Below, piece by piece: positions 8,205 through 25,173 of a stretch of DNA of 64,000 nucleotides. The translations under genes were made by a program, and so were the position numbers. Origin of the DNA: Vicinamibacterales bacterium (GTDB lineage Bacteria; Acidobacteriota; Vicinamibacteria; Vicinamibacterales; UBA2999); NCBI GenBank assembly GCA_044347565.1, contig JBIKUN010000001.1, positions 22,302-86,301 of the forward strand. Reading direction: 5' to 3'. The stretch's first letter is position 1. The number at the start of each line of letters is the position of its first letter. Below the pieces are notes generated by a model that saw only the letters and a program-made list of their open reading frames with translations, was not told the DNA's origin and searched no databases.

Positions 8205-8280
8205 GGGCCCGTAGCTCAACTGGCAGAGCAGCAGACTCTTAATCTGTTGGTTGAAGGTTCGATTCCTTCCGGGCTCACCA
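8205..8280 (+). tRNA. tRNA-Lys (anticodon CTT); integration target
   Basis: Cloverleaf with acceptor GGGCCCG/CGGGCTC (one G-U pair), anticodon loop CTCTTAA, T arm GAAGG TTCGATT CCTTC, encoded CCA. Confidence 0.9.
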
Positions 8281-8953
8281 TCTTTTCATCAGCCCTCTCG
8301 GACGGCGCCAAGTACTTGAAAAGTGGTGCTGTCACGGCGGTTCGATTGAATCGATTTCCGTCGTACGCGATCCCCTCCGGAAAGAACAGCGCCTGCAGCC
8401 GCTGCTTGTAGTCGAGCGACGCCTGCACCCACAGGTCTGACGCGCGCGGCAGAATGCGTTCTGCGAACGCCAGGATGCCCTGTACGTCGAGTTCGTCGGT
8501 GGCGTCGGCGTGGTAGTCGATCTGGGCCAGCGTCAGCTCCTCGCGCAGCCGGTCGCGCTGCCGCTCGTAGCTCGTGCGATCGATCGACTGCGCGAACAGG
8601 AACGCTTCGTCGAGCCGATCGAGCTTCTGCTGGATCGCCTTCACCCGCCGGTCCTGCTCGACCGTACGGTCCTTCGCCTCGGCCCGCCGCTGCTCCCACA
8701 CGTAGAGAATCCGGTCCTTGACCAGGCGCATGTCGCCGGCAGACGGCTGCAGGAGCGCGAGTTCGTCCGCGAACGCGCCTTCGAGCGCAGCCTTGCTGAC
8801 GTTGACCGCCCGACACTGCCGCTGGCAGTGGCAGTAGGTGTTGCCGCTCACTGAAAACTGACCACCCCGCTTGGCGGCACACTGACCAGACTGCAGACCA
8901 AGGGCTGTCGCCCATCTGGCCGCATTCGGGGCCCTGAGACTCAGGGCAAGTGG
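8216..8953 (-). pseudogene. large serine recombinase remnant (zinc-ribbon and coiled-coil C-terminal part only)
   Basis: The open frame runs from the stop at ~8954. It reads GLQSGQCAAKRGGQFSVSGNTYCHCQRQCRAVNVSKAALEGAF, then IQQKLDRLDEAFLFAQSIDRTSYERQRDRLREELTLAQ and LWVQASLDYKQRLQALFFPEGIAYDG. No resolvase catalytic N-domain is present. The frame runs antisense through the tRNA before stopping. Confidence 0.7.
8236..8280 (+). repeat. att repeat A (3' 45 nt of tRNA-Lys)
   Basis: ctcttaatctgttggttgaaggttcgattccttccgggctcacca is repeated at 21710-21754. Its last 22 nt recur at 25143-25164. Confidence 0.9.
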
Positions 8954-9812: not shown

Positions 9813-10967
9813 TCAGTCGACCGGAAGAAACGCCCATAGCGCCGGGCGGCCGCAGTTGCAGTGCACCGCTCGTCCGAGCAGGCCGCCACCTGCGAGTCCG
9901 AGATACACAGCTGTGCGAGCGGCGTCCCACGCGCCGGGTGCCGGGCGAGCCACCGCGTGGTCACGATTCCCAACGCTTGGGATCGGGTGGAAGATCGTTT
10001 CGACCAGCGCCGGCCGCTCGGGCTCATCGTCCTGGTCGGCGTCGAGCGCGCGGGCAGTCGCCTTCGCAAGCGTCTCGGACACCCCAGCCGCGCGCACGTA
10101 CGCATCCAACTCCGCGACCCCTCGACGGCTGACTGTCGGCAGGATGAGCAGTCCGACGAAGGACCACAGCGTGAACCACAGACTGAGTTCGATCGTGCCG
10201 CCGGCGGAGCCGAGTCGGCCGGGGCCCACGATCGCAGCCGACAATCCGACGCCTGAAAGCGTGAACGCCAGCGCCAGCATTCGACCGCGTCGCCAGGTGC
10301 CGCTCGTGCCGGCCAGCTCGCGGCGGAGCCGCACGCAGGCGAGCTGTTCCGGCGTCAACGACACCTGCCACCGCGCTGGAAGCACGACTCGCCGCGGCCT
10401 CACGACGCCAAGCACGCCGCCGGTAAACCCCTCGTCGTCGCTGGCCACGGTCACATCCGGAAGTTGACCGCCCGAAGACTCGACACCCAGACGGGCCAGC
10501 GACCTGGCCACGGCCATGCGGCCCCACAACAGCAGGAATGACGCGACCGCCCCGACGGCAACGACGCCCCAGACACCTCCGACCCGACCGGCGGCAAGGA
10601 GCGCGACCAGGCTCACGCACAGCACGCAGGCATAGACCACCGCGCCGCGAAGCAGGCGCCCAAGGAATGTCCGGAGCCCCTGGCGGGACCGGCCGTACCA
10701 CACCGGTAACAGGTGCCCGCCGAACAGGTCGAAGGGCAGCTGAACGGCCGCGTGCGATATTGAATAGACGGCCAACGCCAGCGCGGCCGCTCCGACGCCT
10801 GGGCTGACCATGGCATCTACTGCAGCCGGCAGCCCGGCGGCGAGGGCGGCGGTGGTCAGCGTGACCATGGTGCCAACGCCGGAGATGCCAACCCACAGCC
10901 GTGCGCGACCGTAGCCAGGGGCGCGGCCTTCCGACGAAACATACGTTCCTGATGGTGTCGTTGACAT
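9813..10967 (-). CDS. polytopic membrane protein, M48-peptidase-like but lacking HEXXH
   Basis: 384-aa ORF with 4-5 N-terminal TM segments and the layout of an M48/HtpX-type peptidase. RRELA sits where HEXXH is expected (TPEQLACVRLRRELAGTSG), and the C-terminus reads ETIFHPIPSVGNR. It starts 5 nt downstream of the photolyase-like gene. Confidence 0.6.
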   Translation of the reverse strand: MSTTPSGTYVSSEGRAPGYGRARLWVGISGVGTMVTLTTAALAAGLPAAVDAMVSPGVGAAALALAVYSISHAAVQLPFDLFGGHLLPVWYGRSRQGLRTFLGRLLRGAVVYACVLCVSLVALLAAGRVGGVWGVVAVGAVASFLLLWGRMAVARSLARLGVESSGGQLPDVTVASDDEGFTGGVLGVVRPRRVVLPARWQVSLTPEQLACVRLRRELAGTSGTWRRGRMLALAFTLSGVGLSAAIVGPGRLGSAGGTIELSLWFTLWSFVGLLILPTVSRRGVAELDAYVRAAGVSETLAKATARALDADQDDEPERPALVETIFHPIPSVGNRDHAVARPAPGAWDAARTAVYLGLAGGGLLGRAVHCNCGRPALWAFLPVD

Positions 10968-10972
10968 CGGCT

Positions 10973-12235
10973 CTATGGTGATTCGTGAAGCGCCTGGAGG
11001 GGAACTCGTGCAGCCTCCCAGAAGGGGAAGAACCCCTTGGTCGCCAGTGGGAAGAATGCCAGGTCGTGGCCGCGGTCGGCGTAGCGAAGCGTCACGCCGG
11101 TCTTCCTGAGTTCAACGGCGAGCTCGGCCAGCGCTGCGGCGACAAACCCCATGAGCGGCCTGTAGGCCCACACCTCGTCCGCCCCGTTCGCACGGCACCA
11201 GCCGGTGACCTCGGCGGCGCTCCGGGCGTGCGTCACGATCCGTACGCGGGTGTCGGCATCGGCACACGCGCCGGCCACCCACGTGGCGACCAGCTCACCG
11301 GGCGAGTGGTGCCGCCACTTTGCGACGGCATACCGGACCGCAGGCACACGGGTCCAGTCGTCGGGTCGAGGCCCGCAGTCCTCGTCGTGCAGGAGCACCG
11401 CCCGCGGCCGCACGTCACCGGCGGCGGGTCCGAGAGCAGGCCTCACCGCAGAGGTTCGGGCGAGACCATCGTCTGGCAGCGGCCGGGCCGACTCGTCGAG
11501 CTCACCCGGCCTCGGTGACCACCGGCCGTTCGTGAACCTGGCGATGTTGTCGGCGCGGGCCAGGTAGTGCTTGCCCGGCGTCTGAAGGCCCGCCACCCAG
11601 CGCCACGACAGGGTGTTCGACGCCGGGTCGCCGTCCAGCAGATGCTCGAGAAAGAAGCGAGCGCCAAGTTCCCACGGGAGCCTCAGCGTGAAGATCCACA
11701 CGCTCGCGAACCACATCCGCACGTGATTGTGCAGGTATCCCGTGGCGGTCAGTTCCTCGCACCACGCATTGAAATACGGCAAGTCGGTGGTGCCGGATGT
11801 CGCACGGGCGACACGGTCGCTGTCGGTCTGCGGGAGCGTGTCGTCGAGCGACCGAAGCCGCGCGAGGTAGGCGTGCCAGACACCGGGACGGGCCTCGAGC
11901 CACCCTTTCCAGTAGGTCCGCCAGACGACCTCCTGCACGAACTTTTCGACCCGCTCGAACGAGCCGACCGTGCGGGCGAACGCGAGCACTTCCTCCTCCA
12001 GCACCAGCCGCCGCCGGAGATACGGGGACAGCCGACTCGTCGTCAGCCCGTCGGCGTAGTTGCGCGCGGTGCCGTATCTCCCGACAACATCAGCCAGAGC
12101 GCCGAGCCGCGTCAGGCCCGCGGTCCGCGCTGGAACGGTGGTGCCTGCGTCGGCCCGCACAGCTACGGCCCTACTGCCGTGGTCGCGGCGTCGAGGTGTC
12201 CGAGCGCGACCCAGGCGATGAACAGGTTGATGCAC
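10973..12235 (-). CDS. photolyase/cryptochrome-family protein with the FAD-binding domain at the N-terminus (inverted topology)
   Basis: Strings include LSPYLRRRLV, FVQEVVWRTYWKGWLE, WCEELTATGYLHNHVRMWFASVWIFTLRLPWELGARFFLEHLLDGDPASNTLSWRWVAGLQTPGKHYLARADNI, followed by a ~150-aa C-terminal extension. No N-terminal alpha/beta domain is present. The start is uncertain. GTG at 12160, 2 nt after the DoxX stop, is a good alternative. Confidence 0.8.
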   Translation of the reverse strand: MHQPVHRLGRARTPRRRDHGSRAVAVRADAGTTVPARTAGLTRLGALADVVGRYGTARNYADGLTTSRLSPYLRRRLVLEEEVLAFARTVGSFERVEKFVQEVVWRTYWKGWLEARPGVWHAYLARLRSLDDTLPQTDSDRVARATSGTTDLPYFNAWCEELTATGYLHNHVRMWFASVWIFTLRLPWELGARFFLEHLLDGDPASNTLSWRWVAGLQTPGKHYLARADNIARFTNGRWSPRPGELDESARPLPDDGLARTSAVRPALGPAAGDVRPRAVLLHDEDCGPRPDDWTRVPAVRYAVAKWRHHSPGELVATWVAGACADADTRVRIVTHARSAAEVTGWCRANGADEVWAYRPLMGFVAAALAELAVELRKTGVTLRYADRGHDLAFFPLATKGFFPFWEAARVPLQALHESP

Positions 12236-12537
12236 ATCAGCAACAGGGCCGGCAGTGTCTGTGCGACCGAGTCGAGCACGCGGATGCGGGTTGCCACGCC
12301 CACGAACATCATCAGCGCCAGGCCGCCCGCGCTGAACGGCACGAGGGGCAGCCAGAGTTGACCCACGATCAGGCCAAGCGCCCCGAGCACCTCGAGGGTG
12401 CCCACGAGCGTCCGGAGTCGACTGAGGCCGAATCGCTCGAAGTCACGCCGCATGCCCTCGAAGAACAGGGACGCGATGCCGTAGAACAGGAACAGCAAGG
12501 AAGACACGACGATCGATGCATAATATGGCCACGTCAC
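12163..12537 (-). CDS. DoxX-family membrane protein
   Basis: 124 aa with 4 TM segments and DoxX-like strings (LFLFYGIASLF, GLSRLRTLVGTLEVLGALGLIVG). Confidence 0.7.
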   Translation of the reverse strand: MTWPYYASIVVSSLLFLFYGIASLFFEGMRRDFERFGLSRLRTLVGTLEVLGALGLIVGQLWLPLVPFSAGGLALMMFVGVATRIRVLDSVAQTLPALLLMCINLFIAWVALGHLDAATTAVGP

Positions 12538-12567
12538 GCTTGACCGACCTTCAAGCGGCGACGACGG

Positions 12568-12582
12568 TGACCAGTCTGGTCA
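12568..12582. promoter_or_regulatory. perfect 15-bp palindrome TGACCAGtCTGGTCA between the divergent DoxX genes
   Basis: Read directly. It is centred in the 65-bp gap between starts 12537(-) and 12603(+). Confidence 0.5.
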
Positions 12583-12602
12583 GTCATGCGGGGAGCGCAT
12601 TC

Positions 12603-12977
12603 ATGGAGTGGTTGTCACTGACGAATCTGCTTCAAATCGTAGTCGGCCTGGGGCTGTTGAATGTCTGGCTGGTGCGCGGAGGTTCCTCTACATCCTATCG
12701 CGGCGGTAAGGCGCAGACGCTGCAGCAGGAGTTTGCCGCCTACGGCCTGCCCGGGTTCGCCTTCTATCTCGTGGGCGCGCTCAAGATCGGAGCCGCCGTC
12801 GTGCTGCTGGCCGGCGTGTGGATGGCACTTCCGGTGCGGGAGGCAGCGGCCCTCGTGGCTGCGCTCATGATTGGCGCGATTGCCATGCACGTGAAGGTCA
12901 GCGATCCGTTGATGAAGTCGCTTCCCGCCGTGCTGATGCTGGCGATGAGCGCCGCGATCGTCGCCCTGCGCTCGTAG
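12603..12977 (+). CDS. DoxX-family membrane protein
   Basis: MEWLSLTNLLQIVVGLGLLNVWLVR..., 4 TM segments, LKIGAAVVLLAG. The internal Met (codon 30 of track ORF 12516..12977) was chosen as start. Confidence 0.7.
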   Translation: MEWLSLTNLLQIVVGLGLLNVWLVRGGSSTSYRGGKAQTLQQEFAAYGLPGFAFYLVGALKIGAAVVLLAGVWMALPVREAAALVAALMIGAIAMHVKVSDPLMKSLPAVLMLAMSAAIVALRS

Positions 12978-13014
12978 CCCCTGGTCAGAGATACGTTGCC
13001 GAGGTCGCGAGGCC

Positions 13015-13668
13015 TCACCATCCACTCGTGCCGGGGTCTCCCTTGAAGGGACCAACGAGTTCCGGCGTGATCCAGCCGCCGTAGAACCCGCCCGCCTGCC
13101 CCTTGATCCTCACCGCGTCCACGTAGTAATCGCTCCGGGCGGGGTAGAACGAGAGATGGGCGCGGAGGGCTTCGAAGGCCGGCAAAGGCTCGTCGTACGA
13201 CCAACCCACCGCATTCAGCACCATCGGCGCGGCACGCACGGTCCGGTATCTCGCCGTGCCTTTCCACTCGCAGACGGACGACCCCGGCGCGGGCTGCAGG
13301 TATTCGAGCGTGACGTCGGCACGCGGGATGTACACGGTGGGGGGGCTCGCCGTCTCGAGTACCCGAAGGGCGCGGCGCGTGCGCGCCACTTCCACGTCTC
13401 CGACGCGGACGACGATCTGTCTGGGCTCAGCGCCGATGCTTGGAGGCCGCGGGTAGTCCCAGACGGACTCCTGCCCGGGCGCTGGCGCCACGGCAAACGG
13501 CGGACGCACCTGCCCGTAGTAGCGCCAGCCCCCGGGCGTCGGCCCCGGGCGAGTTGGTGACGGGTGGCTGGCCACACTCGTATTGACGGCGAGGCCGCCC
13601 TCGAGGGTCCGGGACGGACGCTCGTTGGCCGGGACGTGGCCCACCCGCCGAGTATGATTGCGGCGCAC
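13015..13668 (-). CDS. DUF427 domain protein
   Basis: ESVWDYPRPP, VARTRRALRVLETASPPTVYIPRADV, SVCEWKGTARY, VGWSYDEPLPAFEALRAHLSFYP. The start is probably internal, because the full ORF overlaps the LOV gene start. Confidence 0.7.
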   Translation of the reverse strand: MRRNHTRRVGHVPANERPSRTLEGGLAVNTSVASHPSPTRPGPTPGGWRYYGQVRPPFAVAPAPGQESVWDYPRPPSIGAEPRQIVVRVGDVEVARTRRALRVLETASPPTVYIPRADVTLEYLQPAPGSSVCEWKGTARYRTVRAAPMVLNAVGWSYDEPLPAFEALRAHLSFYPARSDYYVDAVRIKGQAGGFYGGWITPELVGPFKGDPGTSGW

Positions 13669-14910
13669 CCCGAGGATGCGCGCGTGTCAGCAGAGCCCTC
13701 TCAACAGAACGCGAAGTCGTCGGCCGCCGCTCGCCTTCAGGAACGAGCGCCGGCGGATCAGCTCGCCCTGAAAGATCGTGCGCTCGACGTGGCGGCTGAG
13801 GGCATCACCATTGCAGACGCGCGGTTGCCCGACCGGCCCCTCATCTACGCGAACGAGGGCTTCGAGCACATGACGGGCTACTCCGTGGCGGAGGTGCTGG
13901 GCAGGAACTGCCGGTTCCTGCAGGGCCCCGGTTCCGATCCGGCCGCGGTGGCAGAAATCCGCGCCGCCGTCGCCGGGGAACGCGAGTGCATCGTCGAGAT
14001 CCTGAACTACCGCCGTGACGGCACGACGTTCTGGAATCGGCTCTCGATCACGCCGGTTCGCGACGACCTCGGCGAGGTGACCCATTACATCGGCATCCAG
14101 TCGGACGTCAGCGCCCGTCGCGAGGCCGAGCAGGGACTGCGTCGCGCCAAGGAAGTGCTCGAGCACGATCTCGAGCTAGCGGCGCGGGTTCAGCAGGCCC
14201 TGCTCCCGCCGGTGGAATCGCATCTGGGTGGATTGCGTATCGCGCGCGCGTTCCACCCCTGCACGGGCCTGGCTGGTGACGCGGTGGGTGTCGTGGCCTT
14301 CCCGCGCGGCCAGGTGGGCCTCTACCTGCTGGACGTGAGCGGGCACGGAGTAGGGGCGGCCCTTCTGTCGTTCACCTTGAACCACCTGCTGTCGTCATCG
14401 GTCGAGGGCGAGCTCCTCATCGAGGAGACGGACGACGGACTTGGAGTCGTTCCGCCATCGCGCGTGGCAGAGCGGCTCAACCGGCAGTTCCCGATGGAGC
14501 GAACGCGTCAGTACTTCACGATGGTGTACGGGGTGTTCGACGCATCGCGCGGGCGATTCCACTACGTGATGGCGGGTCACCCCGCGCCGATCCTCCTGCC
14601 CAGGACGGGGCCGCCAGCGCCGCTGCCCGGCAGCGGCCTGCCGATCGGCATGATCGAGCATGCGGCCTACGACGACGAGACCGTCATCCTCCACCCCGGG
14701 GATCGGCTCTACTTCTACACCGACGGGGTCGTCGAAGCGCTGGACGCGTCGGAGCAGGAGTTCGGTCACGAGCGTTTGATGGCGGAGATCGAACGGCAGC
14801 GGAACCGCCCGTTGCGGGCAGGGCTCGATATCGTCGCCGACCTGGTCCGGGACTGGTCGGAAGGCCACCTAAGAGACGACGTGTCGCTGCTTGCGATCGA
14901 GAGGATTTGA
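13654..14910 (+). CDS. LOV (blue-light PAS) domain fused to a PP2C/SpoIIE-type phosphatase
   Basis: LOV signature: IYANEGFEHMTGYSVAEVLGRNCRFLQGPGSD, with the adduct Cys codon at 13909-13911, then NYRRDGTTFWNRLSITPVRDD..HYIGIQSDVS. SpoIIE/PP2C strings follow: LAGDAVGVVAF, LYLLDVSGHGVGAALLS, YFYTDGVVEA. Confidence 0.85.
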   Translation: MIAAHPEDARVSAEPSQQNAKSSAAARLQERAPADQLALKDRALDVAAEGITIADARLPDRPLIYANEGFEHMTGYSVAEVLGRNCRFLQGPGSDPAAVAEIRAAVAGERECIVEILNYRRDGTTFWNRLSITPVRDDLGEVTHYIGIQSDVSARREAEQGLRRAKEVLEHDLELAARVQQALLPPVESHLGGLRIARAFHPCTGLAGDAVGVVAFPRGQVGLYLLDVSGHGVGAALLSFTLNHLLSSSVEGELLIEETDDGLGVVPPSRVAERLNRQFPMERTRQYFTMVYGVFDASRGRFHYVMAGHPAPILLPRTGPPAPLPGSGLPIGMIEHAAYDDETVILHPGDRLYFYTDGVVEALDASEQEFGHERLMAEIERQRNRPLRAGLDIVADLVRDWSEGHLRDDVSLLAIERI

Positions 14911-15124
14911 GAGCGTGACCGGCTGAGCGGGTGCCGCGCTCGGTGACAGACCCGGCGTGATCCAGCCCGGCCTTAGAGACTCACCTGCGATCGTGCGGCC
15001 TCCAGTGCACCTGACATCGTCAGTGCCGCGTCCAACCCAGAGAAAAGTCGATCCCCCGGCGCCCGTTCATCCGCCGATGTTCCTGCGTGGGCTCGCTGCA
15101 GTTCACATTCTGGGAGGTTCGGTT

Positions 15125-15895
15125 ATGGTACGTTCGCGCGTCGCGTCGGCACTGGTCCTCACTCTCATGCCCTCCGCGGCAATGGCTCAGACCAGCAAGA
15201 CGCTGGAGTCGGGTGATTTCGTCGGCATTTCGTTCTGGCTCATCTCCATGGCCCTCGTGGCCGCCACGGCGTTCTTCTTTCTCGAGACCCAGCGGGTCGC
15301 CGGCAAGTGGAAAACGTCGCTCACCGTCTCCGGTCTCGTCACCCTGGTGGCAGCCACTCACTACTTCTACATGCGCGACGTCTGGATCGCGACTGGCAGC
15401 ACGCCCACGGTGTATCGCTACATCGACTGGCTCATCACGGTGCCGCTGCTCATCACGGAGTTCCATCTGATTCTGGCTGCGATCGGCAAAGCCTCCCCTG
15501 GCATCTTCTGGCGTCTCATTGGCAGCACGACGGGCATGCTGGTCGCGGGTTATCTGGGTGAGGCCGGTTACGTCAACGTCTGGCCGGCTTTCATCGTGAG
15601 CATGGCGTTCTGGTTCGTCGTGCTCTACGAAATCTTCGCCGGCGAGGCCTCCAAGGCAGCCACGACCAACGCCCCGGCCTCGGTTCAGTCGGCCTTCAAG
15701 GCGATGCGTCTCATCGTCACGTTCGGCTGGGCGGTGTATCCCATCGGCTACTTCGTCGGTTACCTGACGGGCGGTGACCCTGCCGACAGCATGGGCATGC
15801 TCAACATCGTCTACAACTTCGCCGACGTGGTGAACAAGATTGCCTTCGGCGTCATCATCTGGTCGGTGGCCGTCACCGAGACTGAACGCGGGTAA
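15125..15895 (+). CDS. proteorhodopsin-type light-driven proton pump (DTE motif, Leu105: green-tuned)
   Basis: 256 aa. Signal peptide MVRSRVASALVLTLMPSAAMAQ, then WKTSLTVSGLVTLVAATHYFYMRDVW. RYIDWLITVPLLITEF gives Asp, Thr and Glu at the PR 97/101/108 positions and Leu at 105. The Schiff-base Lys lies in YNFADVVNKIAFGVIIW. GGGAGG lies 7 nt upstream. Confidence 0.92.
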   Translation: MVRSRVASALVLTLMPSAAMAQTSKTLESGDFVGISFWLISMALVAATAFFFLETQRVAGKWKTSLTVSGLVTLVAATHYFYMRDVWIATGSTPTVYRYIDWLITVPLLITEFHLILAAIGKASPGIFWRLIGSTTGMLVAGYLGEAGYVNVWPAFIVSMAFWFVVLYEIFAGEASKAATTNAPASVQSAFKAMRLIVTFGWAVYPIGYFVGYLTGGDPADSMGMLNIVYNFADVVNKIAFGVIIWSVAVTETERG

Positions 15896-15907
15896 AGCGA
15901 TCACGCG

Positions 15908-15943
15908 GGCAGGCACCCGGGCCAGTGGGCCTTGGTGCCTGCC
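15908..15943 (+). other. GC-rich stem-loop between opsin and blh
   Basis: ggcaggcacc (15908-15917) pairs perfectly with ggtgcctgcc (15934-15943). An inner GGCC/GGCC pairing is possible. No U-tract follows. The blh SD GGAGG (15951-15955) follows directly and can pair with CCTCC at 15942-15946, which shares c15942-15943 with the right arm of the main stem. Confidence 0.5.
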
Positions 15944-15960
15944 TCCTCCAGGAGGCTCGC

Positions 15961-16860
15961 ATGACGCGTCCGCTGAGGTGGCAAAGTGCGCTCTTTCTCC
16001 TGGCGAGTCTCGGCGCCTCCGCACTGGCGTTGGGGGGACTTCGCTTCGACCCTCGCACCGAGTTACTCGTATCGACGGTGCTGATCGGTTTGCTGGGCAT
16101 CCCGCACGGCGCTATTGACCCACTGCTGGCCGCGGCAGTCTACGACCTTCGTCGCCCGACCGACTGGTGCTGGTTCGGCGCCAGTTATGTGGCAGTCGCC
16201 CTGGCAGTCGTGCTGGTGTGGCTGTTCGCACCGATGCTGTTTCTCGCCGGATTCCTCCTCGTGTCCATCGTCCATTTCTCCGAGGACCTGGCACCCGGCG
16301 TCTCCTGGGTCTCGCGCGTGGCATATGGGGCGTCGGTCGTGGTCCTGCCGACCGTGCGGTACGCTTCGGAGACCGGCCGACTACTGGGGCTGGTCGCCGG
16401 CGCAGACGCCGCGGCCCCGGTTGTCGCGGTGCTCGCGGCCGTCGCGGGGCCGTTGATGGCGGTGGCGATCTGGCGGGCGCTGGTCGAAGGGGTGCGCAAC
16501 ACGCAGGTGGGACTCGAGTTGGCGGCCGTCGTTCTGCTGTCGGTCTGTGCACCCCCGCTCATCAGCTTCACGGTGTTCTTCTGCGTGATGCACAGCCTGC
16601 GTCATCTGATTCGAGCGGCGCAAACGCAGGCCGACCGGCCGGGCCGGTCGCTGGTGTACGCCGCGGCGTGGCCCATGGCCGGCACCGTCGGCGCAGCGGT
16701 CTTGGGATGGGCACTGCTGGGGAGCCAGTCGCTCGACCAGGCCATGATGCAGCTGGTCTTCGTCGGTCTCGCCGCGCTCACCGTGCCGCACATGGTTCTC
16801 GTCGAAGCCGCGACTCGGGCTGGCTGGCCCCGCATGGCACCCGCGTTCGAGCAGGCCTGA
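15961..16860 (+). CDS. blh: Brp/Blh-family beta-carotene 15,15'-dioxygenase (retinal synthase)
   Basis: Polytopic ~299-aa protein with the family's spaced histidines (GIPHGAIDP, IVHFSED, CVMHSLRHL, LTVPHMV). It lies directly downstream of the opsin. Confidence 0.85.
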   Translation: MTRPLRWQSALFLLASLGASALALGGLRFDPRTELLVSTVLIGLLGIPHGAIDPLLAAAVYDLRRPTDWCWFGASYVAVALAVVLVWLFAPMLFLAGFLLVSIVHFSEDLAPGVSWVSRVAYGASVVVLPTVRYASETGRLLGLVAGADAAAPVVAVLAAVAGPLMAVAIWRALVEGVRNTQVGLELAAVVLLSVCAPPLISFTVFFCVMHSLRHLIRAAQTQADRPGRSLVYAAAWPMAGTVGAAVLGWALLGSQSLDQAMMQLVFVGLAALTVPHMVLVEAATRAGWPRMAPAFEQA

Positions 16861-16883
16861 TACGAGGTCCCCGCTAGCGTCGC

Positions 16884-16902
16884 AGCGCGCGCCCCGCGCG
16901 CT
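16884..16902 (+). terminator. short GC hairpin just after blh (possible terminator; no U-tract)
   Basis: agcgcgc-gcccc-gcgcgct: 7-bp stem with a 5-nt loop, 24 nt after the blh stop. Confidence 0.25.
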
Positions 16903-16928
16903 CACCCGTCATCTCCTTCTCGGGGAGC

Positions 16929-17230
16929 GTGCGCGATGAGCCTGGCAACGCAGTGCTCGACACGACGGTGGTCGTGTTCCCCGACGACGAGGTGCAGTGG
17001 CCGTATCAATCGCGCTACATTCGCCCGGCGCGTCCAGACACCTCGGGCCGATTCGAGATCGCGGGCTTGCCGGCCGGTGGTCCGACCGCGTCCTGGCGCT
17101 GCAGGGGCTCGAAGACGGCCAAGCGACCGACCCGGCGTTCCTCGCGACGCTGCGCGATCGCAGCGAGCGACTCACTCTGGGCGAGGGCGGGGCGAAGTCA
17201 CTGTTGGCGAGCGCCGAGGGGCCGCGCTGT
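16929..17230 (+). pseudogene. frameshifted C-terminal remnant of a CarboxypepD_reg-type (TonB-receptor-associated) protein
   Basis: Frame 1 reads VVVFPDDEVQWPYQSRYIRPARPDTSGRFEIAGLPAGG. It continues in another frame as RVLALQGLEDGQATDPAFLATLRDRSERLTLGEGGAKSL. No N-terminal part is present. Confidence 0.5.
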
Positions 17231-17622
17231 GCGGACTCGCTGAAGCTCAGTGCGGGGTCGCAGGGCCCGTTCTGCGCCGAGCCGGTGCTCGTTCCGTCTG
17301 GCGATCATCAGATCCTGGCTTTCCGCGTCGTTCGCCACGCCAGCGATGTCACGCGCGTGCGCCGCGTCGCTCACGAGTTTGCCGTGAGCGGCGATGAGGG
17401 CCTGAACGTAGTGCTCTTGTGCCAACGGCGACTCGAATTCCGTCATCTGCGCCACGTGAGCGAGCGTGCCAAGGCCCCCGATGGCGTACGCGTCGAGCGC
17501 CCGAATCCGTTCCACTGCGCCAGGTGAGTCAGCGAGAGCAGGGCGTAGGAATCAGCGAGTACTTGGTTCAGGCCGCGCGTGAGTGCAGCCGTGTCGGTTG
17601 AAGCAGCGTCAATGGCCATCAT
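17198..17622 (-). pseudogene. Dps/ferritin-like protein remnant (internal deletion plus frameshift)
   Basis: The N-terminal piece [37 protein letters not shown] (from 17622) breaks frame near 17515. It resumes as ERIRALDAYAIGGLGTLAHVAQMTEF ... DAESQDLMIARRNEH. The expected segment between the HW motif and the ERIRALGG helix is missing. Confidence 0.55.
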
Positions 17623-17916
17623 GTCCTCGCTCTCGGGATGACCGTCGGGCGTGGCCGCCTACATCGCGTCGGCATAAGCCTGCGGGCAGCCGAAAGCGCC
17701 TCGGTTCCCACTTCTCCACCTCTTGGGACGCACGCTACGACCGCGAGGATGCCGGCACGCAACCGATACCCATCCGCGCCTCGCAGCCTGTCCAGCAACG
17801 GTTCGGTCGTGGACCTGAGCCGGCACACCGGGCGCCATACGCTCGGATGGCGGACGTTGCTGCCATCACACATCCGCTTTCCAGCTGTCGTTCACATACG
17901 ACAAAGAGAGATAGAC

Positions 17917-18354
17917 ATGGCCATGACTGCGACGACCGTGGCCGCGCCAACGGCCGATATCGTCGACACCGCCGTTGCTGCCGGCACGTTCAGCACCCTG
18001 GCGACGGCTCTGACAGCCGCGGGGTTGGTCGACACGTTGAATGGCGCTGGGCCCTTCACGGTGTTCGCGCCGACAAACAACGCGTTTGCGAAGATCCCGG
18101 CGGACGATTTGAAGGCACTGCTGGCGGACAACGCTGCGCTGACGAAGGTGCTGACCTACCACGTTGTGGCAGGCAAGGTCATGGCGGCCGACGTCGTGAC
18201 GATGAAGGAGGCGCAGTCGGTTCAGGGCAGCATGATCGCCATCGATACGACTGCGGGCGTCAAGGTCAACAACGCGACGGTCACGGCGACCGATATCGTG
18301 GCAACCAATGGCGTCATCCACGTGATCGATACCGTGATCATGCCGAAGGCCTGA
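17917..18354 (+). CDS. fasciclin (FAS1) domain protein, no obvious signal peptide
   Basis: [57 protein letters not shown] ... [10 protein letters not shown] ... [13 protein letters not shown]. Confidence 0.85.
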
Positions 18355-18668
18355 CTCGTGGACTCCGGAACGGCGCGGGCGACGAACCCGCGCCGTCCCC
18401 ACACCTCGGCTTGGGAGCCAGATGCGCGCGACGGGACTCGGTGTGGCGTGGTCGTTCGTATCACCGTCAACGATCGCCTCGTCGATATGCTTCCGGCGTT
18501 GATCCTGATGTTCGCCGACGGCTACATCTTGGTGGCGTCGCAGCCGGCGACCTGAACGGGCGTCAGATCACGCGGCCGCCAGTGGGACCAATCCGGCGAC
18601 CGAGGGCGTCTTACGGGACACGAAGTCCGACGCGCCGGTCCGCGCGACTGTATCGAAAGATCCTCACC

Positions 18669-18836
18669 GTGTTTCATCGCAGCGATGCCGTCTTTCTTGT
18701 GGCCGCCTTCCTGTCATTCGTGTTCTCGGTGTACCTCTGGTTCAGCGGGCAGCGCGACGAAGGCATGTTCGTGGGCATCTGGGTGCCGTCGATCCTGTCG
18801 TTCGCGACGCTGACGGCCCAGGCGAGGAAGCGCTGA
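18669..18836 (+). CDS. small two-TM membrane protein (55 aa, GTG start)
   Basis: VFHRSDAVFLVAAFLSFVFSVYLWFSGQRDEGMFVGIWVPSILSFATLTAQARKR. Its stop overlaps the next ATG (cTGATG). Confidence 0.4.
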   Translation: MFHRSDAVFLVAAFLSFVFSVYLWFSGQRDEGMFVGIWVPSILSFATLTAQARKR

Positions 18837-18970
18837 TGTCCGCCATGACGATTCTCGCGGTCGGGCTCTTCGTGACCGCTCTGTGCGGGTTCGGGTTGTG
18901 GTTCACGATCGTCGAGATCCGCCGGCTCTCGAGCCGCGCCCCGAGCGATGAGCCGGGACGACCTGCGTGA
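18836..18970 (+). CDS. small single-TM membrane protein (44 aa; below the ORF-track cutoff)
   Basis: [44 protein letters not shown]. It is coupled to the upstream small ORF and overlaps the SDR start. Confidence 0.4.
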   Translation: MSAMTILAVGLFVTALCGFGLWFTIVEIRRLSSRAPSDEPGRPA

Positions 18971-19718
18971 TTCGACCTTCGTCGTGGTTGCGGCGGCAAG
19001 CAGCGTGGCCGTGCGCGTGGCGCAGATGCTGGCTGCGCGAGGCGCGCGCCTGGTGCTGGCAGGCCGCGATGCCGCCGTGCTCGCTCCGCTCGCCGCAGAC
19101 GTCGGCGGCCGCGTGGTGACAGCCGACGCCACCCGCTTCTCAGACCTTGAGCGCTGCGTCGGCGACGCCGCGGCCACGACCGGCCGCCTGGACGGCATCG
19201 TCAACTGCGCCGGCTCGATTCTTCTGAAGTCCGCGCACCTCACCTCTGAACAGGAGTTGCAGGACGTGCTCTCGGCCAATCTCGTCTCGGCGTTTGCCAC
19301 CGTGCGCGCCGCGTCGAACGTGATGCGGCCGTCTGGCGGCTCGATCGTGCTGATGAGCTCGGCGGCCGCCGCCATCGGTCTGCCCAACCACGAGGCGATC
19401 GCCGCCGCGAAGGCCGGCGTGTCGGGGCTGATGCGTTCGGCGGCGGCGACCTACGCGCCCTATGGCATTCGCGTGAACGCTGTGGCTCCCGGTCTCGTCG
19501 ACACTCCGATGAGTCGCCCGATCACGTCGAACGATCTCGCGCGCAAGGCATCGGTGGCCATGCATCCGCTTGGCCGGCTCGGCACGCCTGACGACATCGC
19601 CGAGGCCGTATGCTGGCTGCTCGGCCCGCAAAGCTCCTGGGTCACGGGCCAGGTCATCGGCGTTGATGGCGGGCTGGCCACATTGAAGACCCGCAGCAAG
19701 ACAGAGAGCCGCTCCTGA
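18948..19718 (+). CDS. SDR-fold protein with degenerate cofactor and catalytic motifs
   Basis: The SDR core is present ([29 protein letters not shown]). The TGxxxGxG position reads VAAASSVA. The YxxxK position reads IAAAK (Tyr replaced by Ile). Confidence 0.7.
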
Positions 19719-19854
19719 CGACGTGAACACGCCTCCGCGTCGGGATCCGTCACTCGGACCGCGACGTCCTACCTACGTAGGCACGATGGTGCGAACGGAA
19801 CGCACCCTCGCACATCGTGACGATTCACAGCAGTGTTTCAGAGGGTATATCGAC

Positions 19855-20346
19855 ATGCAGATACTCAAGACTCTCGTGTGCGGCGCCGTCGTGGCGACCA
19901 TGGCTCTGTCGGCGGGAACGACCGTTCGTGCACAGGGCAAGGACATTGTTGACACGGCCGTGGCGGCCGGACAGTTCAAGACGCTCGCGGCGGCCCTGAC
20001 CGCGGCCGGCCTCGTGCCGACGCTGAAGGGTGCCGGGCCGTTCACGGTGTTCGCGCCGACCGACGAGGCGTTCGCGAAGCTGCCGAAAGGTACGGTCGAA
20101 GACCTGTTGAAGCCCGAGAACAAGGCCAAGCTCACCGCGATCCTCACGTATCACGTGGTCGCTGGCAAGGTGATGGCAGCCGACGTCGTGAAACTGACCT
20201 CTGCCAAGACCGTGCAGGGCGGATCGGCCAAGGTCTCGACGATGGGCGGCGGCGTGATGATCGATGCATCGCACGTCACGAAGACGGATATCGTGACGTC
20301 GAACGGCGTGATTCACGTGATCGACACGGTGATGATGCCGAAGTAG
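19855..20346 (+). CDS. secreted fasciclin (FAS1) domain protein
   Basis: [28 protein letters not shown] (signal peptide), then [44 protein letters not shown] ... [14 protein letters not shown]. Confidence 0.88.
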
Positions 20347-20472
20347 CGGCATCGACGGAGATGCATCGAGGGGTCCTACCGGAGCGTCCGGCGGCCCCTC
20401 GATCTGTGTACGCGTCCCGTGCACTGCCCGTACGACCGGGAGCACGGCAGAGATCCGCCGCGGTTACCTCGC

Positions 20473-21195
20473 TCATCCCGTGCGAGGCCCGTGGATGACA
20501 CCAGCCGCCCGGGCTTGCCACGCCGCCGCGTGCTCGCGGTGGTCGGCCATCACCGCCTGTGGCAGCTTCTTCGGCGCCGCAAGCGGCACCGCCATTCGGA
20601 CGTTGGCCGCGAAGCGCGCGCGATGACGCTCCAGGAAGTTCCAGTAGAGATGGTTTAGGGGACACGCCGCCGCTCCGCTCGTCGTGGCGGGATCGAACTG
20701 GCAGCCCGCGCATAGACTCGGCCCCAGCCGCTGGATGTACTTTCCCGACGACACGTGGGGCTTGCTGCCCACGATGCCGCCGTCAGCCCACGTTGCCATG
20801 CCGGCCACATTGGGTGCGACCACCCACTCGTAGGCATCCACGTACATTTCCCAGAACCAACGATAGAGCGCTTGCGGGTCGACACCGAGCAGCGTCGCGA
20901 TGTTCGACAGTGCCATCAGCCGCTGGATGTGGTGGCTGTAGCCGCGTGCGACCAGCTGTGCGACGGCGGTGTCGAGACAGTGGATGCCCGAGAGCTCGCC
21001 CCAGTAACACGAAGGCAGCGGCAGGTCTGCGGCGAGCGCGTTGGACACTCCGAACGTCATCACGGCGATGCGCACGGTCGTTGCCGCCTGAATTTTCGTG
21101 GACGTCCAGGACCTGCTCTGCGGCGGCGACGGCACGACGTGCCGGCTCTTCACGCCGGACGGCGCCCTCCTGTCGTACGATGGCGCGCATCTCAC
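20473..21195 (-). pseudogene. C-terminal half of an FeS-cluster (6-4) photolyase / CryB-PhrB-type protein; N-terminal half missing
   Basis: Family-like sequence starts only around LPLPSCYWGE. It continues GYSHHIQRLMALSNIATLLGVDP, WFWEMYVDAYEWVVAPNVAGMATWADGG, SGKYIQRLGPSLCAGCQFDPATTSGAAACPLNHLYWNFLERH. The C-x2-C-x12-C spacing is as in the FeS-BCP class. The first ~45 residues of the ORF look unrelated. Confidence 0.65.
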
Positions 21196-21659
21196 GCCGG
21201 ATCGCGCCCGCTACGCTGGCACGCGCCTGCCGGCGGCCCCGGCGCTGGCCGCCTGGCGCTAAGGCCCGGACGGCGCCGCTCCCGGAGATCACACATGCCT
21301 CACGTCATCGAACGCGCCACCACGGGCCGCGCCAGGTGTCACGACGTGACGACCGCTGCAGACCTCGTGGGCGTGCGGACGATACGGTCGTCGCCGGCCT
21401 TGCGGTCAGTGAAGCGCGAGTGATCCTGATTCGCTTTCCGGCCGGGGCGCGGCGCACGGTCGGGGTAGTCGTGGCGCAGGCGGTGAGCAGGTTCGGCGTG
21501 CGATTGGTCGGCAGCTTCGCCGTCGTCGAGCCCGGGCGGGTGCGGCTCGGCCGACCGCCTCGCGCCTGACGACAAGGCCCCAGGCTGGCATCGCCGTGTG
21601 GCACTGTGTGGCACTGCTTCCGTGCGTAGCGTCATCTGGGGCCACCACGAGTCGTCGAT

Positions 21660-23099
21660 TCATTCAGTAAATCGCGACCTGCGACGTCGTGCGATGGCTC
21701 TTCCGACGTCTCTTGATCTGTTGGTTGAAGGTTCGATTCCTTCCGGGCTCACCACTCCAACTGGAGGCGCATTAACGGTTTCCGCGTCGAGCGCGTCATC
21801 GACGTCGTACGCCCCAACCGCGCCGTGTGGCACTGGTGTGGCACTGGAGCAAGAATCCCCCTCGCGCACCATGGGCGGCGTGCGTTCGCTTGCCGCCTGC
21901 GAGTCCTCCAGCAGGCGCAACGCGCGCTCCAAGCGCATCGCCGTGGAACGCAGGTAGCGCGACGTCGTCGTGAGGTTGGTGTGACCGAGGAAGTCACGCA
22001 CGTCGTGCAACTCGGCGCGCGACTCCAGCAGCCGGCATGCGAACTCGCGGCGCAGGTCGTGGAAGTGCAGGTCAACAGCGCCGGCCTTCTCGCACGCGGT
22101 GCGCCACGTGGTCTTGATCGACGCGATCGGCCCGCCCACCTCGTCGCCGAACACATAGGCGTCCGGCGGTAGCACCTCACCCTCTGGGTCAGTCCGCAAC
22201 ATCTCGAGCACGGCGGCCAGGCGCTGCCCCACCGGAACGACCCGCAGCGTGCCCGTCTTGGTCTTCCCCGCGCGCAGCACCAGTGCCCGCGCACGGCCGC
22301 CGGCGTCGCACTGCACGTCGCGCCACTGCAACGACAGCAGTTCACCAAGTCGGCACCCCGTCGACAGTGCCGCGATCAGCAGGCCGCGCAGGTGCGGCGT
22401 GGCCACCGTCATGAGCGCGTCTTCTTCGCCTGGCAGCAGCCGGCGGGTGCGCACGGTTTCGGCGGCGCCGTCGAGCCGCACGACGTTCACGCCGTGCCGC
22501 TTGAACGGTGTGTCGTCCCGGTAGCCCTGCGCAATCGCCCAGTTGAACAGATGGCGCACGCGGGCCTTGAATCGGTTGAGGCCGACATGGCCGCCCTTGG
22601 TGCTGCGTCCGGCAAGTGTGGCGGACGTCAGCAGGTCCGCAGGCACGTCGCGCTGCTCGGCCCGCACCCTCGCAACCTGCCGTGCCGCGGCGAGCGCCTC
22701 GTTCACGGCGTCGAGGCGCGCGTGGATCTCGAACTGGCGCACGGCATGCGGCTTCCGTGTGTCACGCCGCGCGTAGTCGCGCAGGTAACGTTCCGCCACG
22801 TTCGCCAACGTGGGCTCAACGACTGTCTGCGTGCAGACCTCGGGGAGCGCGAACGCACCGGCACGCACCTCCGTCCGAATGCGATCGGCGAGCGCCTGCG
22901 CTTCACTGCGCGACATCACGTCGCCGGCCGGCCGATCCGCGAAGCGATGGAGACTCACGCGGTGGCGCACTTTGCTACCCGCGACGTCCTTGCCATGACA
23001 GAAGGCGAAGTGCCATGGGTGCGTGCACTTCGTCCACAGTCGCGGCGTACAGCCGCACCGCTTCGAGAGCCCATCCTGACGTCGCATGGTTGAAGTCAA
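21660..23099 (-). CDS. int: tyrosine-type site-specific integrase
   Basis: 479-aa ORF with LSTGCRLGELLSLQWRDV, catalytic region HFHDLRREFACRLLE, and LGHTNLTTTSRYL. The last ~30 codons read antisense through att repeat B. Confidence 0.9.
   Translation of the reverse strand: MTSTMRRQDGLSKRCGCTPRLWTKCTHPWHFAFCHGKDVAGSKVRHRVSLHRFADRPAGDVMSRSEAQALADRIRTEVRAGAFALPEVCTQTVVEPTLANVAERYLRDYARRDTRKPHAVRQFEIHARLDAVNEALAAARQVARVRAEQRDVPADLLTSATLAGRSTKGGHVGLNRFKARVRHLFNWAIAQGYRDDTPFKRHGVNVVRLDGAAETVRTRRLLPGEEDALMTVATPHLRGLLIAALSTGCRLGELLSLQWRDVQCDAGGRARALVLRAGKTKTGTLRVVPVGQRLAAVLEMLRTDPEGEVLPPDAYVFGDEVGGPIASIKTTWRTACEKAGAVDLHFHDLRREFACRLLESRAELHDVRDFLGHTNLTTTSRYLRSTAMRLERALRLLEDSQAASERTPPMVREGDSCSSATPVPHGAVGAYDVDDALDAETVNAPPVGVVSPEGIEPSTNRSRDVGRAIARRRRSRFTE
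21710..21754 (+). repeat. att repeat B (copy of the tRNA-Lys 3' 45 nt, one mismatch)
   Basis: ctcttgatctgttggttgaaggttcgattccttccgggctcacca, aligned by eye to 8236-8280. Confidence 0.9.
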
Positions 23100-23128
23100 A
23101 AGTGCGTCGGTGAGCTTGCCCCGGTTTC

Positions 23129-23587: not shown

Positions 23588-23887
23588 ATGGCCACGACCA
23601 CGATCAAGCTTGCCAACGATCTCAAGGAACGAATCGCGCCATTAGCGCGCGCTGCCGGCCAGACACCGCATGCGTGGATGGTGACCGCGCTCGAGCGTCA
23701 GGCCGAGCTGGCGGGCATGCGCGAACAGTTCATTGCGGAGGCGGAAGCGTCCGCGTCAGAAGTCGACGCGGGTGGCGCGTTATATGCGGCCGAGGACGTT
23801 CACGCCTATATCCTTGCGCGCGCCGCACGCAGGGGCGGTGGCAGGAAGCCAGCCCGGCCGAAGGCGATCAAGCGCCGCCGCGCGTGA
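23588..23887 (+). CDS. ParD/RelB-type antitoxin
   Basis: MATTTIKLANDLKERIAPLARAAGQTPHAWMVTALERQAE (RHH-like). There is a 4-nt GTGA overlap with the toxin gene. Confidence 0.75.
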   Translation: MATTTIKLANDLKERIAPLARAAGQTPHAWMVTALERQAELAGMREQFIAEAEASASEVDAGGALYAAEDVHAYILARAARRGGGRKPARPKAIKRRRA

Positions 23888-24165
23888 AGATCCTGTACTC
23901 GGCGCGTGCGCTCGCTGGCCTCGACCGCGTGTTCGATTTCCTCGCCGCCCATGATCCGAACGCAGCCGTGCGCGCTGCAGAGCGGATCGGCGAGGCCGTG
24001 GCGCTGCTTCAGAACCACCCGTTCGTCGGCCGGCCGATCCGCGGCGAGGTGCGCGAGTTGGTGATTTCGCACGGCCGCGACGGTTACGTGGCGCTCTATC
24101 GCGTTCGCGCCGGCACGGTTGTGGTCCTCGCGGTGCGGCACCAGCGCGAGGCCGGGTATCAATAG
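23884..24165 (+). CDS. ParE/RelE-family toxin
   Basis: VKILYSARALAGLDRVFDFLAAHDPNAAVRAAERIGEAVALLQNHPFVGRPIRGEVRELVISHGRDGYVALYRV; 93 aa. Confidence 0.75.
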   Translation: MKILYSARALAGLDRVFDFLAAHDPNAAVRAAERIGEAVALLQNHPFVGRPIRGEVRELVISHGRDGYVALYRVRAGTVVVLAVRHQREAGYQ

Positions 24166-24384
24166 TTGCCGACCGGGTGGTGCAGAGAAGCGCGGCCGCA
24201 AAGCTGAGCCGCGGCGAGGGTTGCCGGTCGCGGTGCGCGAGGACGCGGCGCGCTGGTGCGGTCACCACGTTCGGCGGAGGGCTTCGCGGGTGACGTCGTT
24301 CTCGAGCAGCGAGTCCGCCAGCCGCTTCTTCAAAGGCGTCTTCTGCTCCGCTTTCCGACGCTCGCCAGCTCGTATGACGCAGTC

Positions 24385-24876
24385 ATGCACGTGGAAGAAG
24401 TGCTGACCATCCGCCTGCCAAGGGGCACGCGGCGCCGTCTGGAGCGGCGCGCCAAGGCGCAGAAGCTCTCGGTGAGCCAGCTGGTGCGTCGCGCGCTCGA
24501 ACAGGACGAGCTGCTCATGAGCCTCGCCTCGGCTCGCGCCGAACTAGTCGTGGTGCGTGCTCTTGGCTCCGGCGCCGTGGTCACGTCCCCGGCGCTACTC
24601 GATGAGATCGATGGCACGTTACGCGCCAGGTTCACGATCGGACCTGCGGCAATGGCGTTTCTCGAGCAGCTCCGCTTGCGGGTGCATCTCGTCGTGCCGG
24701 CGCCACTCGCGCCGCCGGCGTCGCGTGCCCCTGACGATGACGTGGTGTTGGCAACGGCCGTCGCCGCCAATGCGACGGCCATCGTCACCGGAAACCGTGA
24801 CCTGCTCGTTCTGCAACGCTGTCGCGGTGTCGAGATCGTCACGCCACGCGACTTCCTGAGCCGCCTGCCGACGTGA
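24385..24876 (+). CDS. RHH (CopG-like) antitoxin fused to an N-terminally truncated PIN domain
   Basis: N-terminus MHVEEVLTIRLPRGTRRRLERRAKAQKLSVSQLVRRALEQ. C-terminus SRAPDDDVVLATAVAANATAIVTGNRDLLVLQRCRGVEIVTPRDFL (PIN C-terminal signature). The expected N-terminal vvlDTNv acidic motif of PIN is absent. Confidence 0.6.
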   Translation: MHVEEVLTIRLPRGTRRRLERRAKAQKLSVSQLVRRALEQDELLMSLASARAELVVVRALGSGAVVTSPALLDEIDGTLRARFTIGPAAMAFLEQLRLRVHLVVPAPLAPPASRAPDDDVVLATAVAANATAIVTGNRDLLVLQRCRGVEIVTPRDFLSRLPT

Positions 24877-25142: not shown

Positions 25143-25168
25143 TCGATTCCTTCCGGGCTCACCACTCC
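25143..25168 (+). repeat. att repeat C (26 nt, outermost copy)
   Basis: tcgattccttccgggctcaccactcc is identical to 21733-21758. The first 22 nt match the tRNA 3' end. Confidence 0.85.
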
Positions 25169-25173
25169 CCGGC

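Follow-up and report, generated by a model that had tools for sequence, protein, structure and literature searches.

The stretch of DNA analysed here, 64,000 nucleotides of contig JBIKUN010000001.1 (the window), carries a gene for a proteorhodopsin (PR) followed directly by blh, a gene for a retinal synthase, and raises the question of how these two genes reached this place and whether they could work there together. Our answer, to which a probability of about 0.85 is given, is that they are a green-PR/Blh photosystem carried as cargo of an island in a tRNA-Lys gene of a freshwater acidobacterium of the Vicinamibacterales type. The two genes and the spacer between them are listed below, with positions counted from the first nucleotide of the window.

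15125..15895 (+), proteorhodopsin of 256 aa with the Asp-Thr-Glu (DTE) motif and Leu at the tuning site (Pfam, PDB search, alignments)
15901..15963 (+), GC-rich stem-loop filling the PR-blh spacer (minimum free energy -41.2 kcal/mol, z -3.9, 0 of 200 shuffled sequences as stable)
15961..16860 (+), Blh/Brp beta-carotene 15,15'-dioxygenase (retinal synthase), 299 aa (PF15461, TIGR03753)

The opsin gene runs from an ATG at 15125 to a TAA at 15893-15895. This ATG is internal to the open reading frame (ORF) 14957-15895 (+) of the six-frame ORF list, has a GGGAGG Shine-Dalgarno sequence 8 nt to its 5' side, and opens a protein that begins with MVRSRVASALVLTLMPSAAMAQ. The translation matched Pfam Bac_rhodopsin (PF01036) at 5e-48 over residues 33-251. 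In a search of all PDB chains the best matches were those of green proteorhodopsin (GPR; 7b03, 8cnk, 2l6x and 8cqc), with an E-value of 5e-80 over residues 27-254, followed by the blue proteorhodopsins (2e-76 to 1e-68) and, far behind, by Gloeobacter rhodopsin (6e-21), xanthorhodopsin (XR; 4e-17), the NDQ sodium pumps (2e-11), the NTQ chloride pumps (4e-11) and the bacteriorhodopsins (about 1e-9). The global pairwise alignment with GPR gave 56.6% identity over 226 positions, in which H79, R98, D101, T105, L109 and E112 of the opsin correspond to H75, R94, D97, T101, L105 and E108 of GPR, and W202, Y205, D234, N237 and K238 to W197, Y200, D227, N230 and K231. Residues D101, T105 and E112 lie within RYIDWLITVPLLITEF, and the Schiff-base lysine, K238, in a DxxNK context.

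An earlier note on this stretch had aligned the opsin by eye with green PR along its whole length and described it as a green-tuned DTE protein. All of its residue assignments proved correct, including the motif residues, the Leu at the tuning position and the Schiff-base lysine, which stood on GPR K231 in a proper alignment; the strings that it quoted (the one given above, ATHYFYM and VVNKIAF) are all present in the translation. The two comparisons that it had proposed, an alignment to reference PR, XR and Gloeobacter rhodopsins and a phylogeny, were carried out, and both agreed with it, PR being far closer than XR, NDQ or NTQ by the PDB E-values and the opsin being placed among freshwater PRs.

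Lake Tanganyika contigs, labelled Acidobacteria in the case of L001/L170 and Acidimicrobiia in that of L172, carried the nearest other opsins, 88-90% identical; the best match among species-representative genomes was 89% identical. The next group of opsins (67-77%) belonged to freshwater Beta- and Alphaproteobacteria, Verrucomicrobiota and a metagenome-assembled genome (MAG) of Acidobacterium from Lake Baikal. A neighbour-joining tree placed the window opsin within the radiation of freshwater PRs, where it grouped with those from Tanganyika and Baikal that are labelled Acidobacteria. The 30 aligned relatives all have the DTE motif and keep eight residues of the opsin, those at H75, R94, D97, T101, L105, E108, D227 and K231 in GPR numbering. 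Two of the 89%-identical opsins (P0012 and P0015; MBM3782053.1 and MBM3809297.1) are misannotated as 'biphenyl 2,3-dioxygenase' in NCBI.

From its family and residues the opsin is predicted to absorb green light and, as a DTE proteorhodopsin, to pump protons outward when illuminated. The possibility of a carotenoid antenna was judged from the fenestration in transmembrane helix 5, that is, from Gly at XR position 156, where Phe or Trp blocks carotenoid binding. GPR has Phe at this position (bioRxiv 10.1101/2022.08.24.505090). In the pairwise alignment the window opsin has no Gly there but F156, the sole Phe of that helix, which corresponds to GPR F152, and therefore no xanthophyll antenna is expected.

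The blh gene starts at ATG 15961 behind an AGGAGG Shine-Dalgarno sequence, and the spacer from the opsin stop at 15895 measures 65 nt, exactly as had been claimed. Its product scored 137 bits (1e-39) against a cut-off of 28 for PF15461 (BCD) and 161 bits against a curated cut-off of 95.25 for NCBIfam TIGR03753. All five histidines of the protein (H49, H105, H211, H215 and H277) were invariant in 22 aligned homologues from related loci, together with the PHG, HF and HxxRH contexts around them; the conserved histidines of Blh serve as iron ligands. The gene was intact in all contigs of the population. PR and Blh would thus make up a minimal proteorhodopsin photosystem with a predicted retinal synthesis of its own, in which Blh would cleave beta-carotene into two molecules of all-trans-retinal, and these would bind Lys238 (GPR K231).

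The two genes are probably co-transcribed. On folding of the window sequence, the 3' arm of the spacer stem-loop pairs with the Shine-Dalgarno sequence and ribosome-binding site of blh, and hairpins occupy the same place between PR and blh in L170 (10798-10835) and L172 (10804-10834), with position kept and sequence different. This pairing and the hairpins of the two relatives suggest a high expression of the opsin and a low one of Blh: the stem-loop may mask the blh ribosome-binding site and hold Blh far below the opsin in abundance. A consensus scan for promoters and terminators around the PR-blh genes gave results no better than those of shuffled sequence.

The answer to how the pair came to this place is given by its surroundings, in which the following features were located.

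8205..8280 (+), tRNA-Lys (CTT), the integration target (ARAGORN; Rfam RF00005, 70.9 bits)
8236..8280 (+), attL on the left side of the PR island, made up of the last 45 nt of tRNA-Lys (repeat family D3)
21710..21754 (+), second copy, with 44/45 nt of the tRNA-Lys 3' end, at once attR of the PR island and attL of the integrase element (D3)
25143..25164 (+), third copy, a 22-nt exact tRNA-Lys 3' end, right boundary of the integrase element (D3)
21660..23099 (-), tyrosine integrase, its 3' end overlapping the att repeat (Pfam PF00589 1.4e-23; phrog_1 integrase 1.5e-46)
23884..24876 (+), toxin-antitoxin genes (ParE-like; RHH-PIN) of the integrase element (JGI Pfam ParE_toxin, PIN_3; Pfam PIN_3, RHH_1)

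The PR-blh pair lies inside an island of 13,474 bp (8281-21754), and the three att copies share their orientation. A scan of metagenomes with the aminotransferase of the left flank (window 6026-7399) did not retrieve the source population but gave three informative contigs, L092, L093 and L145. The first two, from a related lineage, have an aminotransferase 87% identical to that of the window and keep the order TAL, glucose-6-phosphate isomerase (PGI), NhaA, aminotransferase, nuclease and tRNA-Lys, collinear with the left flank. They align to window positions 8114-8280 and then directly to 21710-22966, with the 45 nt present once. This junction of 8280 to 21710 identifies the 13,474 bp between the repeats as an insertion relative to that arrangement. 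Integrase homologues 75-90% identical to that of the window abut tRNA-Lys in both contigs, and in the window an IS3-type helix-turn-helix fragment, the ParE-like toxin and the RHH-PIN pair stand between the integrase and the third repeat. The site-specific insertion of the PR island in the 3' end of tRNA-Lys(CTT), between the tRNA and a 3.4-kb integrase/toxin-antitoxin element, is thus demonstrated, and of the two elements the one with the integrase has been at this tRNA for longer. The carriage of the pair on a mobile element, proposed in the earlier note, is borne out by the direct repeats, the adjacent integrase and the precise empty site in relatives.

The GC content was 67.1% in the island, 70.2% in the left flank and 70.7% in the right flank, and the island value matches the 66-67% of the contigs with the closest PRs. 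The GC content at third codon positions (GC3) was 0.79-0.86 in the island genes, 0.91-0.93 in the left-flank genes for TAL, PGI, NhaA and the aminotransferase, and 0.86 in the nuclease. The composition agrees with a foreign origin of the island and is not decisive. With regard to the host, the best named relatives of the left-flank PGI were those of Acidobacteria MAGs (86-91%) and Vicinamibacterales MAGs (76-80%), which places the host in the Acidobacteriota/Vicinamibacterales lineage, and the roughly 70% GC bears out the claim of a GC-rich genome. The host is probably a freshwater acidobacterium of the Vicinamibacterales type with roughly 70% GC, and its lake of origin is probably Lake Mendota. 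The exact opsin was present on at least 22 contigs; among the ten opsin places shown, nine were in JGI samples 3300042289-3300044644 (one also in NCBI) and one on an ENA contig, and the nine with available DNA were 99.4-100% identical to the window. Names of MAGs from the Lake Mendota time series have sample numbers in this range, which is the ground for the lake given above.

Several observations weigh against this reading of the locus. No island-free variant was found in the same population; of the contigs with the exact flanking nuclease (7583-8065), all that are long enough carry the island. The PR island is without an intact recombinase of its own, the sole intact integrase lying in the adjacent 3.4-kb element, and the ORF of this integrase, although open in the window, was not called by JGI in the parent contig. 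No carotenoid (crt) gene was seen in roughly 72 kb of the parent contig around PR-blh, which comprise the window and, from the JGI contig gene tables, about 2.4 kb to its left and 5 kb to its right. The composition contrast is moderate, as core genes of the right flank have GC3 values of 0.83-0.87, rising to 0.91, and the S8 peptidase, with 0.83, overlaps the island. Finally, the regulatory role of the spacer hairpin draws on the folding of three sequences only.

The means of movement were sought in the island and in the element beside it. Next to the tRNA gene the island contains one further feature of this kind.

8312..8851 (-), orf179, C-terminal remnant of a large-serine-recombinase-like integrase, about 180 aa (weak phrog_95 match, E 4.7e-5)

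The match covers positions 408-545 of the 651 of phrog_95, which are the zinc-ribbon/coiled-coil part of large serine recombinases; no Pfam or NCBIfam family matched orf179. Three-frame translation of the about 960 nt that follow (8852-9812) showed stops in all frames and no intact N-terminal part, and this, together with the resemblance, indicates that orf179 is probably what is left of a decayed integrase gene. No similarity was found between the tyrosine integrase and the region next to tRNA-Lys. Since no intact recombinase is encoded in the PR island itself, its insertion was most likely catalysed in trans by the neighbouring tyrosine integrase, or this enzyme could still move it. No conjugation or phage genes were seen. 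Viral carriage of the opsin was also considered and rejected, as the only candidate found was a 47%-identical opsin of a giant-virus MAG, and no evidence for a phage vehicle was thus obtained.

On the other hand, the whole 16.9 kb (8281-25164) might be a single composite element that moves by the integrase at 21660-23099, with the internal att copy as a relic. Such a unit would fit the common orientation of the three att copies, the location of the sole intact integrase in the distal part and the similar GC content of the two parts (67.1% and 67.8%), and it is possible, although on the unlikely side: in relatives this tRNA is occupied by the integrase part without the other, which indicates that the two parts were acquired separately at least once. 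An island inserted beside an older integrase element is the reading preferred here.

The next question is whether the pump could obtain its retinal. In most of the retrieved relatives blh lies 4.7-5.5 kb downstream of PR, and in L002, a Verrucomicrobiota locus, crtE, crtI, crtB and crtY, confirmed by Pfam, fill the interval; ORFs of matching size were found in L015, L043 and L054. A cassette without crt genes, with blh immediately behind PR, is present in the window and in L001/L170, L003, L012 and L172. In L015 (Ca. Methylopumilus universalis) a second rhodopsin gene (10818-11561; Pfam 1e-34), whose product shares 31% identity with the window PR, stands between the PR gene, which it follows immediately, and an ORF of about the size of crtE.

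The ORFs between PR and blh of L015, L002, L043 and L054 were used as tblastn queries (E 1e-3) against the window, their crt identity being Pfam-confirmed for L002 only (polyprenyl synthase, phytoene desaturase, phytoene synthase and lycopene cyclase); crtE/I/B/Y were absent, and only the opsin and Blh were matched. Pfam scans likewise found no crt family among the well-supported ORFs of the window, so that the absence of carotenoid genes from the window, already stated in the earlier note, was confirmed by both approaches. In L172, however, crtB/I/Y and crtE are present within 9 kb upstream of its 89%-identical PR. Named relatives of the CrtY of this contig, with 55-58% identity, were those of Acidobacteriota and Vicinamibacterales MAGs, and L186, the contig of an unnamed match of the same search, contains a crtE-Y-I-B-Z cluster; both data indicate that lycopene cyclisation is available in the order. 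P0266 was tried as a candidate for the CrtY of the host and discarded, as it came from other samples; the CrtY search with L172 gave plausibility at the order level only. It was also observed that L172/L173 (Tanganyika; the locus that carries P0015) is labelled Acidimicrobiia and that its nearest named CrtY relatives are all from Acidobacteriota or Vicinamibacterales, for which reason the label of this bin may be wrong.

Beta-carotene would be supplied by crt genes elsewhere in the host chromosome, the alternative being scavenged retinal. Since relatives of the same order have crtY clusters, a synthesis of beta-carotene by the host is plausible. If, instead, the host had no beta-carotene pathway, the pump would depend on retinal taken from outside and Blh would be idle or act on another carotenoid. 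The lack of crt genes in the roughly 72 kb mentioned above agrees with this, as do the relative L170, also without crt genes within 10 kb on each side, and Acidiparvus, a freshwater acidobacterial genus published with a DTE/L105 PR and without crtEBIY (PMC11561045). We consider such scavenging unlikely, because Blh is intact, scores above its family cut-offs with every His conserved and has been kept beside PR in three contexts, which argues for selection on retinal synthesis, and because the order has MAGs containing CrtY.

The three contexts just mentioned are unrelated to each other: the tight PR-blh pair occurs in the tRNA-Lys island of the window, in a housekeeping neighbourhood without crt genes in L170 and with crt genes upstream in L172. 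The nearest opsins being on Tanganyika and Baikal contigs of about 66-67% GC labelled Acidobacteria, the transfer of PR took place, as far as these sequences indicate, probably within or near the phylum. The opposite course of events, an ancestral PR-blh region that L092 and L093 lost by a precise deletion between the att repeats, was also weighed. Recombination of the two 45-nt repeats would yield exactly the junction of these contigs, the island is fixed in all contigs of the population, and L145, whose aminotransferase is 94% identical to that of the window (6026-7399), also has the left end of the island. Nevertheless, a region that excises between att repeats behaves as integrated elements do, and it would be mobile DNA in either case; moreover, the duplication of a tRNA 3' end, as seen in this repeat, is the signature of integration, the GC and GC3 values of the island are below those of the flanks, and the closest PR-blh pairs lie in unrelated contexts. 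An ancestral position is thus very unlikely, and the insertion of the island in the lineage of the window is retained.

That the opsin is a sensory rhodopsin or a Na+ or Cl- pump and not a proton pump is highly improbable, as, apart from a neighbouring LOV-PP2C signalling gene that could hint at a sensory context, nothing specific speaks for it, whereas the DTE motif, the carboxylate donor E108 and the PR-specific His75 (GPR numbering) are all present, the NDQ and NTQ pumps matched about 70 orders of magnitude worse than PR in the PDB search, Pfam scans showed no transducer gene adjoining the opsin, and the adjacency of LOV-PP2C and PR is not kept in the relatives examined.

The remaining cargo of the island, from left to right, is as follows.

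9813..10868 (-), membrane protein of 351 aa, weakly like the N-terminal helices of CAAX proteases (PF16491 5.8e-6, just below cut-off)
10973..12160 (-), NewPHL-like photolyase, 395 aa (residues 9-200 align to class I photolyase positions of about 206-395)
12163..12537 (-), DoxX-family membrane protein (PF13564 9e-12)
12525..12977 (+), second DoxX-family membrane protein (PF13564 1.9e-8; JGI gene call)
13015..13335 (-), DUF427 protein, 106 aa (PF04248 2.5e-27; JGI gene call)
13654..14910 (+), LOV domain (blue-light flavin sensor) fused to a PP2C/SpoIIE phosphatase (SpoIIE 1e-43, PAS_9 3e-21)
17917..18354 (+), fasciclin-domain protein, copy 1 (PF02469 2e-40)
18948..19718 (+), short-chain dehydrogenase/reductase (SDR; Pfam adh_short_C2 6e-62)
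19855..20346 (+), fasciclin-domain protein, copy 2 (PF02469 2e-39)
20473..21075 (-), protein of 200 aa with a faint photolyase FAD-domain match (PF03441 4e-5, below cut-off)

The LOV-PP2C gene has the same orientation as the opsin gene and precedes it at a distance of 215 nt. Its LOV region matched YtvA and the LOV-histidine-kinase families at 1e-44 to 5e-46, and the translation contains the motif GRNCRFLQG with the adduct-forming Cys; the island showed no gene for a STAS or anti-sigma partner. A tRNA-Gly predicted by ARAGORN at 13879-13952 (+) is inside this coding sequence, was unconfirmed by Rfam and is probably a false positive. In the island photolyase the FAD-binding catalytic domain is N-terminal, with no antenna domain before it, and both length and topology match those of DsNewPHL, of 405 aa (PMC7736829). 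A photolyase-like paralogue of roughly 400 aa, also with an N-terminal FAD domain, is encoded in the core genome at 40472-41689 (+), beside a TetR-DUF2147-SDR group. The 200-aa protein has a 48%-identical homologue in L043, and the 351-aa membrane protein, called by JGI in every contig, a 37%-identical one near PR in L054, a Chthoniobacter MAG; homologues of some cargo genes were found near PR in the Verrucomicrobiota loci L002 and L054. The two fasciclin copies are 74-81% identical in DNA over parts of their length (repeats D2 and D4), and fasciclin genes also adjoin PR in the Aquabacterium and Burkholderiales loci L004, L022 and L043. Neither orf176 (16997-17527) nor its antisense ORF had a Pfam or PHROG match, and no homologue of orf176 was found in the related loci.

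With the PR pair, LOV-PP2C, the NewPHL-like photolyase, DoxX, DUF427 and SDR, the island looks like a package for life in sunlit water. A more far-reaching scenario would make it a self-contained, integrase-less sunlit-water island, providing energy by PR and Blh, sensing by LOV-PP2C and UV repair by the NewPHL-like photolyase, and moved in trans by the tRNA-Lys integrase, whose acquisition helped a member of the typically soil-dwelling Vicinamibacterales to colonise the lake surface and in which the LOV phosphatase switches PR-blh by light. As a whole, this scenario is speculative and quite unlikely.

Outside the island, eight tandem 18-nt repeats that encode a hexapeptide repeat are present directly to the right of the last att copy (25159-25356), in the 3' end of the S8 subtilase gene (25174-27513, -). 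A nonribosomal peptide synthetase cluster at 52438-63393 comprises an acyl-AMP ligase, two C-A-T modules, one of them with a thioesterase, and a family-2 glycosyltransferase, and adjoins genes for an acyl-CoA dehydrogenase and a HupE/UreJ protein.

Among known systems, the opsin is best compared with GPR (eBAC31A08; PDB 2l6x, 7b03 and 8cqc), with which it shares the end-to-end alignment, the key residues, an N-terminal signal-like peptide and the Phe at the fenestration site. It differs in one-residue insertions, one in the region of the E-F loop and two in that of the F-G loop, and in its source, since GPR is from a marine gammaproteobacterium and the window opsin from a freshwater acidobacterium of roughly 70% GC. 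Compared with the canonical PR-crtEIBY-blh cluster, the cassette has the same opsin and Blh family but lacks the crt genes. The opsin and Blh are themselves ordinary, and this is not a new kind of system.

With respect to the vehicle, tRNA-integrated islands are known in tandem arrays, and cis-mobilisable elements (CIMEs), which have no integrase, are a concept that stems from the integrative and conjugative elements of Streptococcus. The locus is similar to such arrays, those with CIMEs included, in its target, a tRNA 3' end, in the att repeats at each boundary, in the toxin-antitoxin genes, in the empty site of relatives and in that only one of the two adjacent units has an integrase. It differs from them in that the recombinase remnant beside the tRNA is of the serine and not of the tyrosine type, and in showing no conjugation or phage genes.

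The closest biological parallel is Acidiparvus/UBA12189, planktonic lake Acidobacteriota with a DTE/L105 PR and without crtEBIY, which form a streamlined genus of the Holophagaceae with low GC content (44-49%) and in which PR is flanked by conserved native genes and was judged not recently transferred; blh is not mentioned in that paper (PMC11561045). The window shares with the Acidiparvus PR and with the 'Acidobacterium sp. Baikal-G1' MAG (L012) the DTE motif with Leu105, a host among the lake Acidobacteriota and the absence of crtEBIY beside the opsin. Unlike the Acidiparvus case, the window comes from a high-GC host of the Vicinamibacterales type, contains blh and has the pair on an insertion resolved to the base. 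The finding is therefore not unprecedented, as PRs of the DTE/L105 type without crt genes have already been published for freshwater Acidobacteriota (PMC11561045). The question that it raises is whether a PR-blh cassette without crt genes is functional only in hosts that already make beta-carotene. While phylogenetic incongruence is the usual ground for inferring a horizontal spread of PR, the present insertion is legible to the single base: its target tRNA and att repeats can be located, an integrase lies beside it, and relatives show the empty site. Its main value is thus that of a clear example of a transfer vehicle, a concrete one for the passage of a two-gene photosystem among high-GC freshwater Acidobacteriota.

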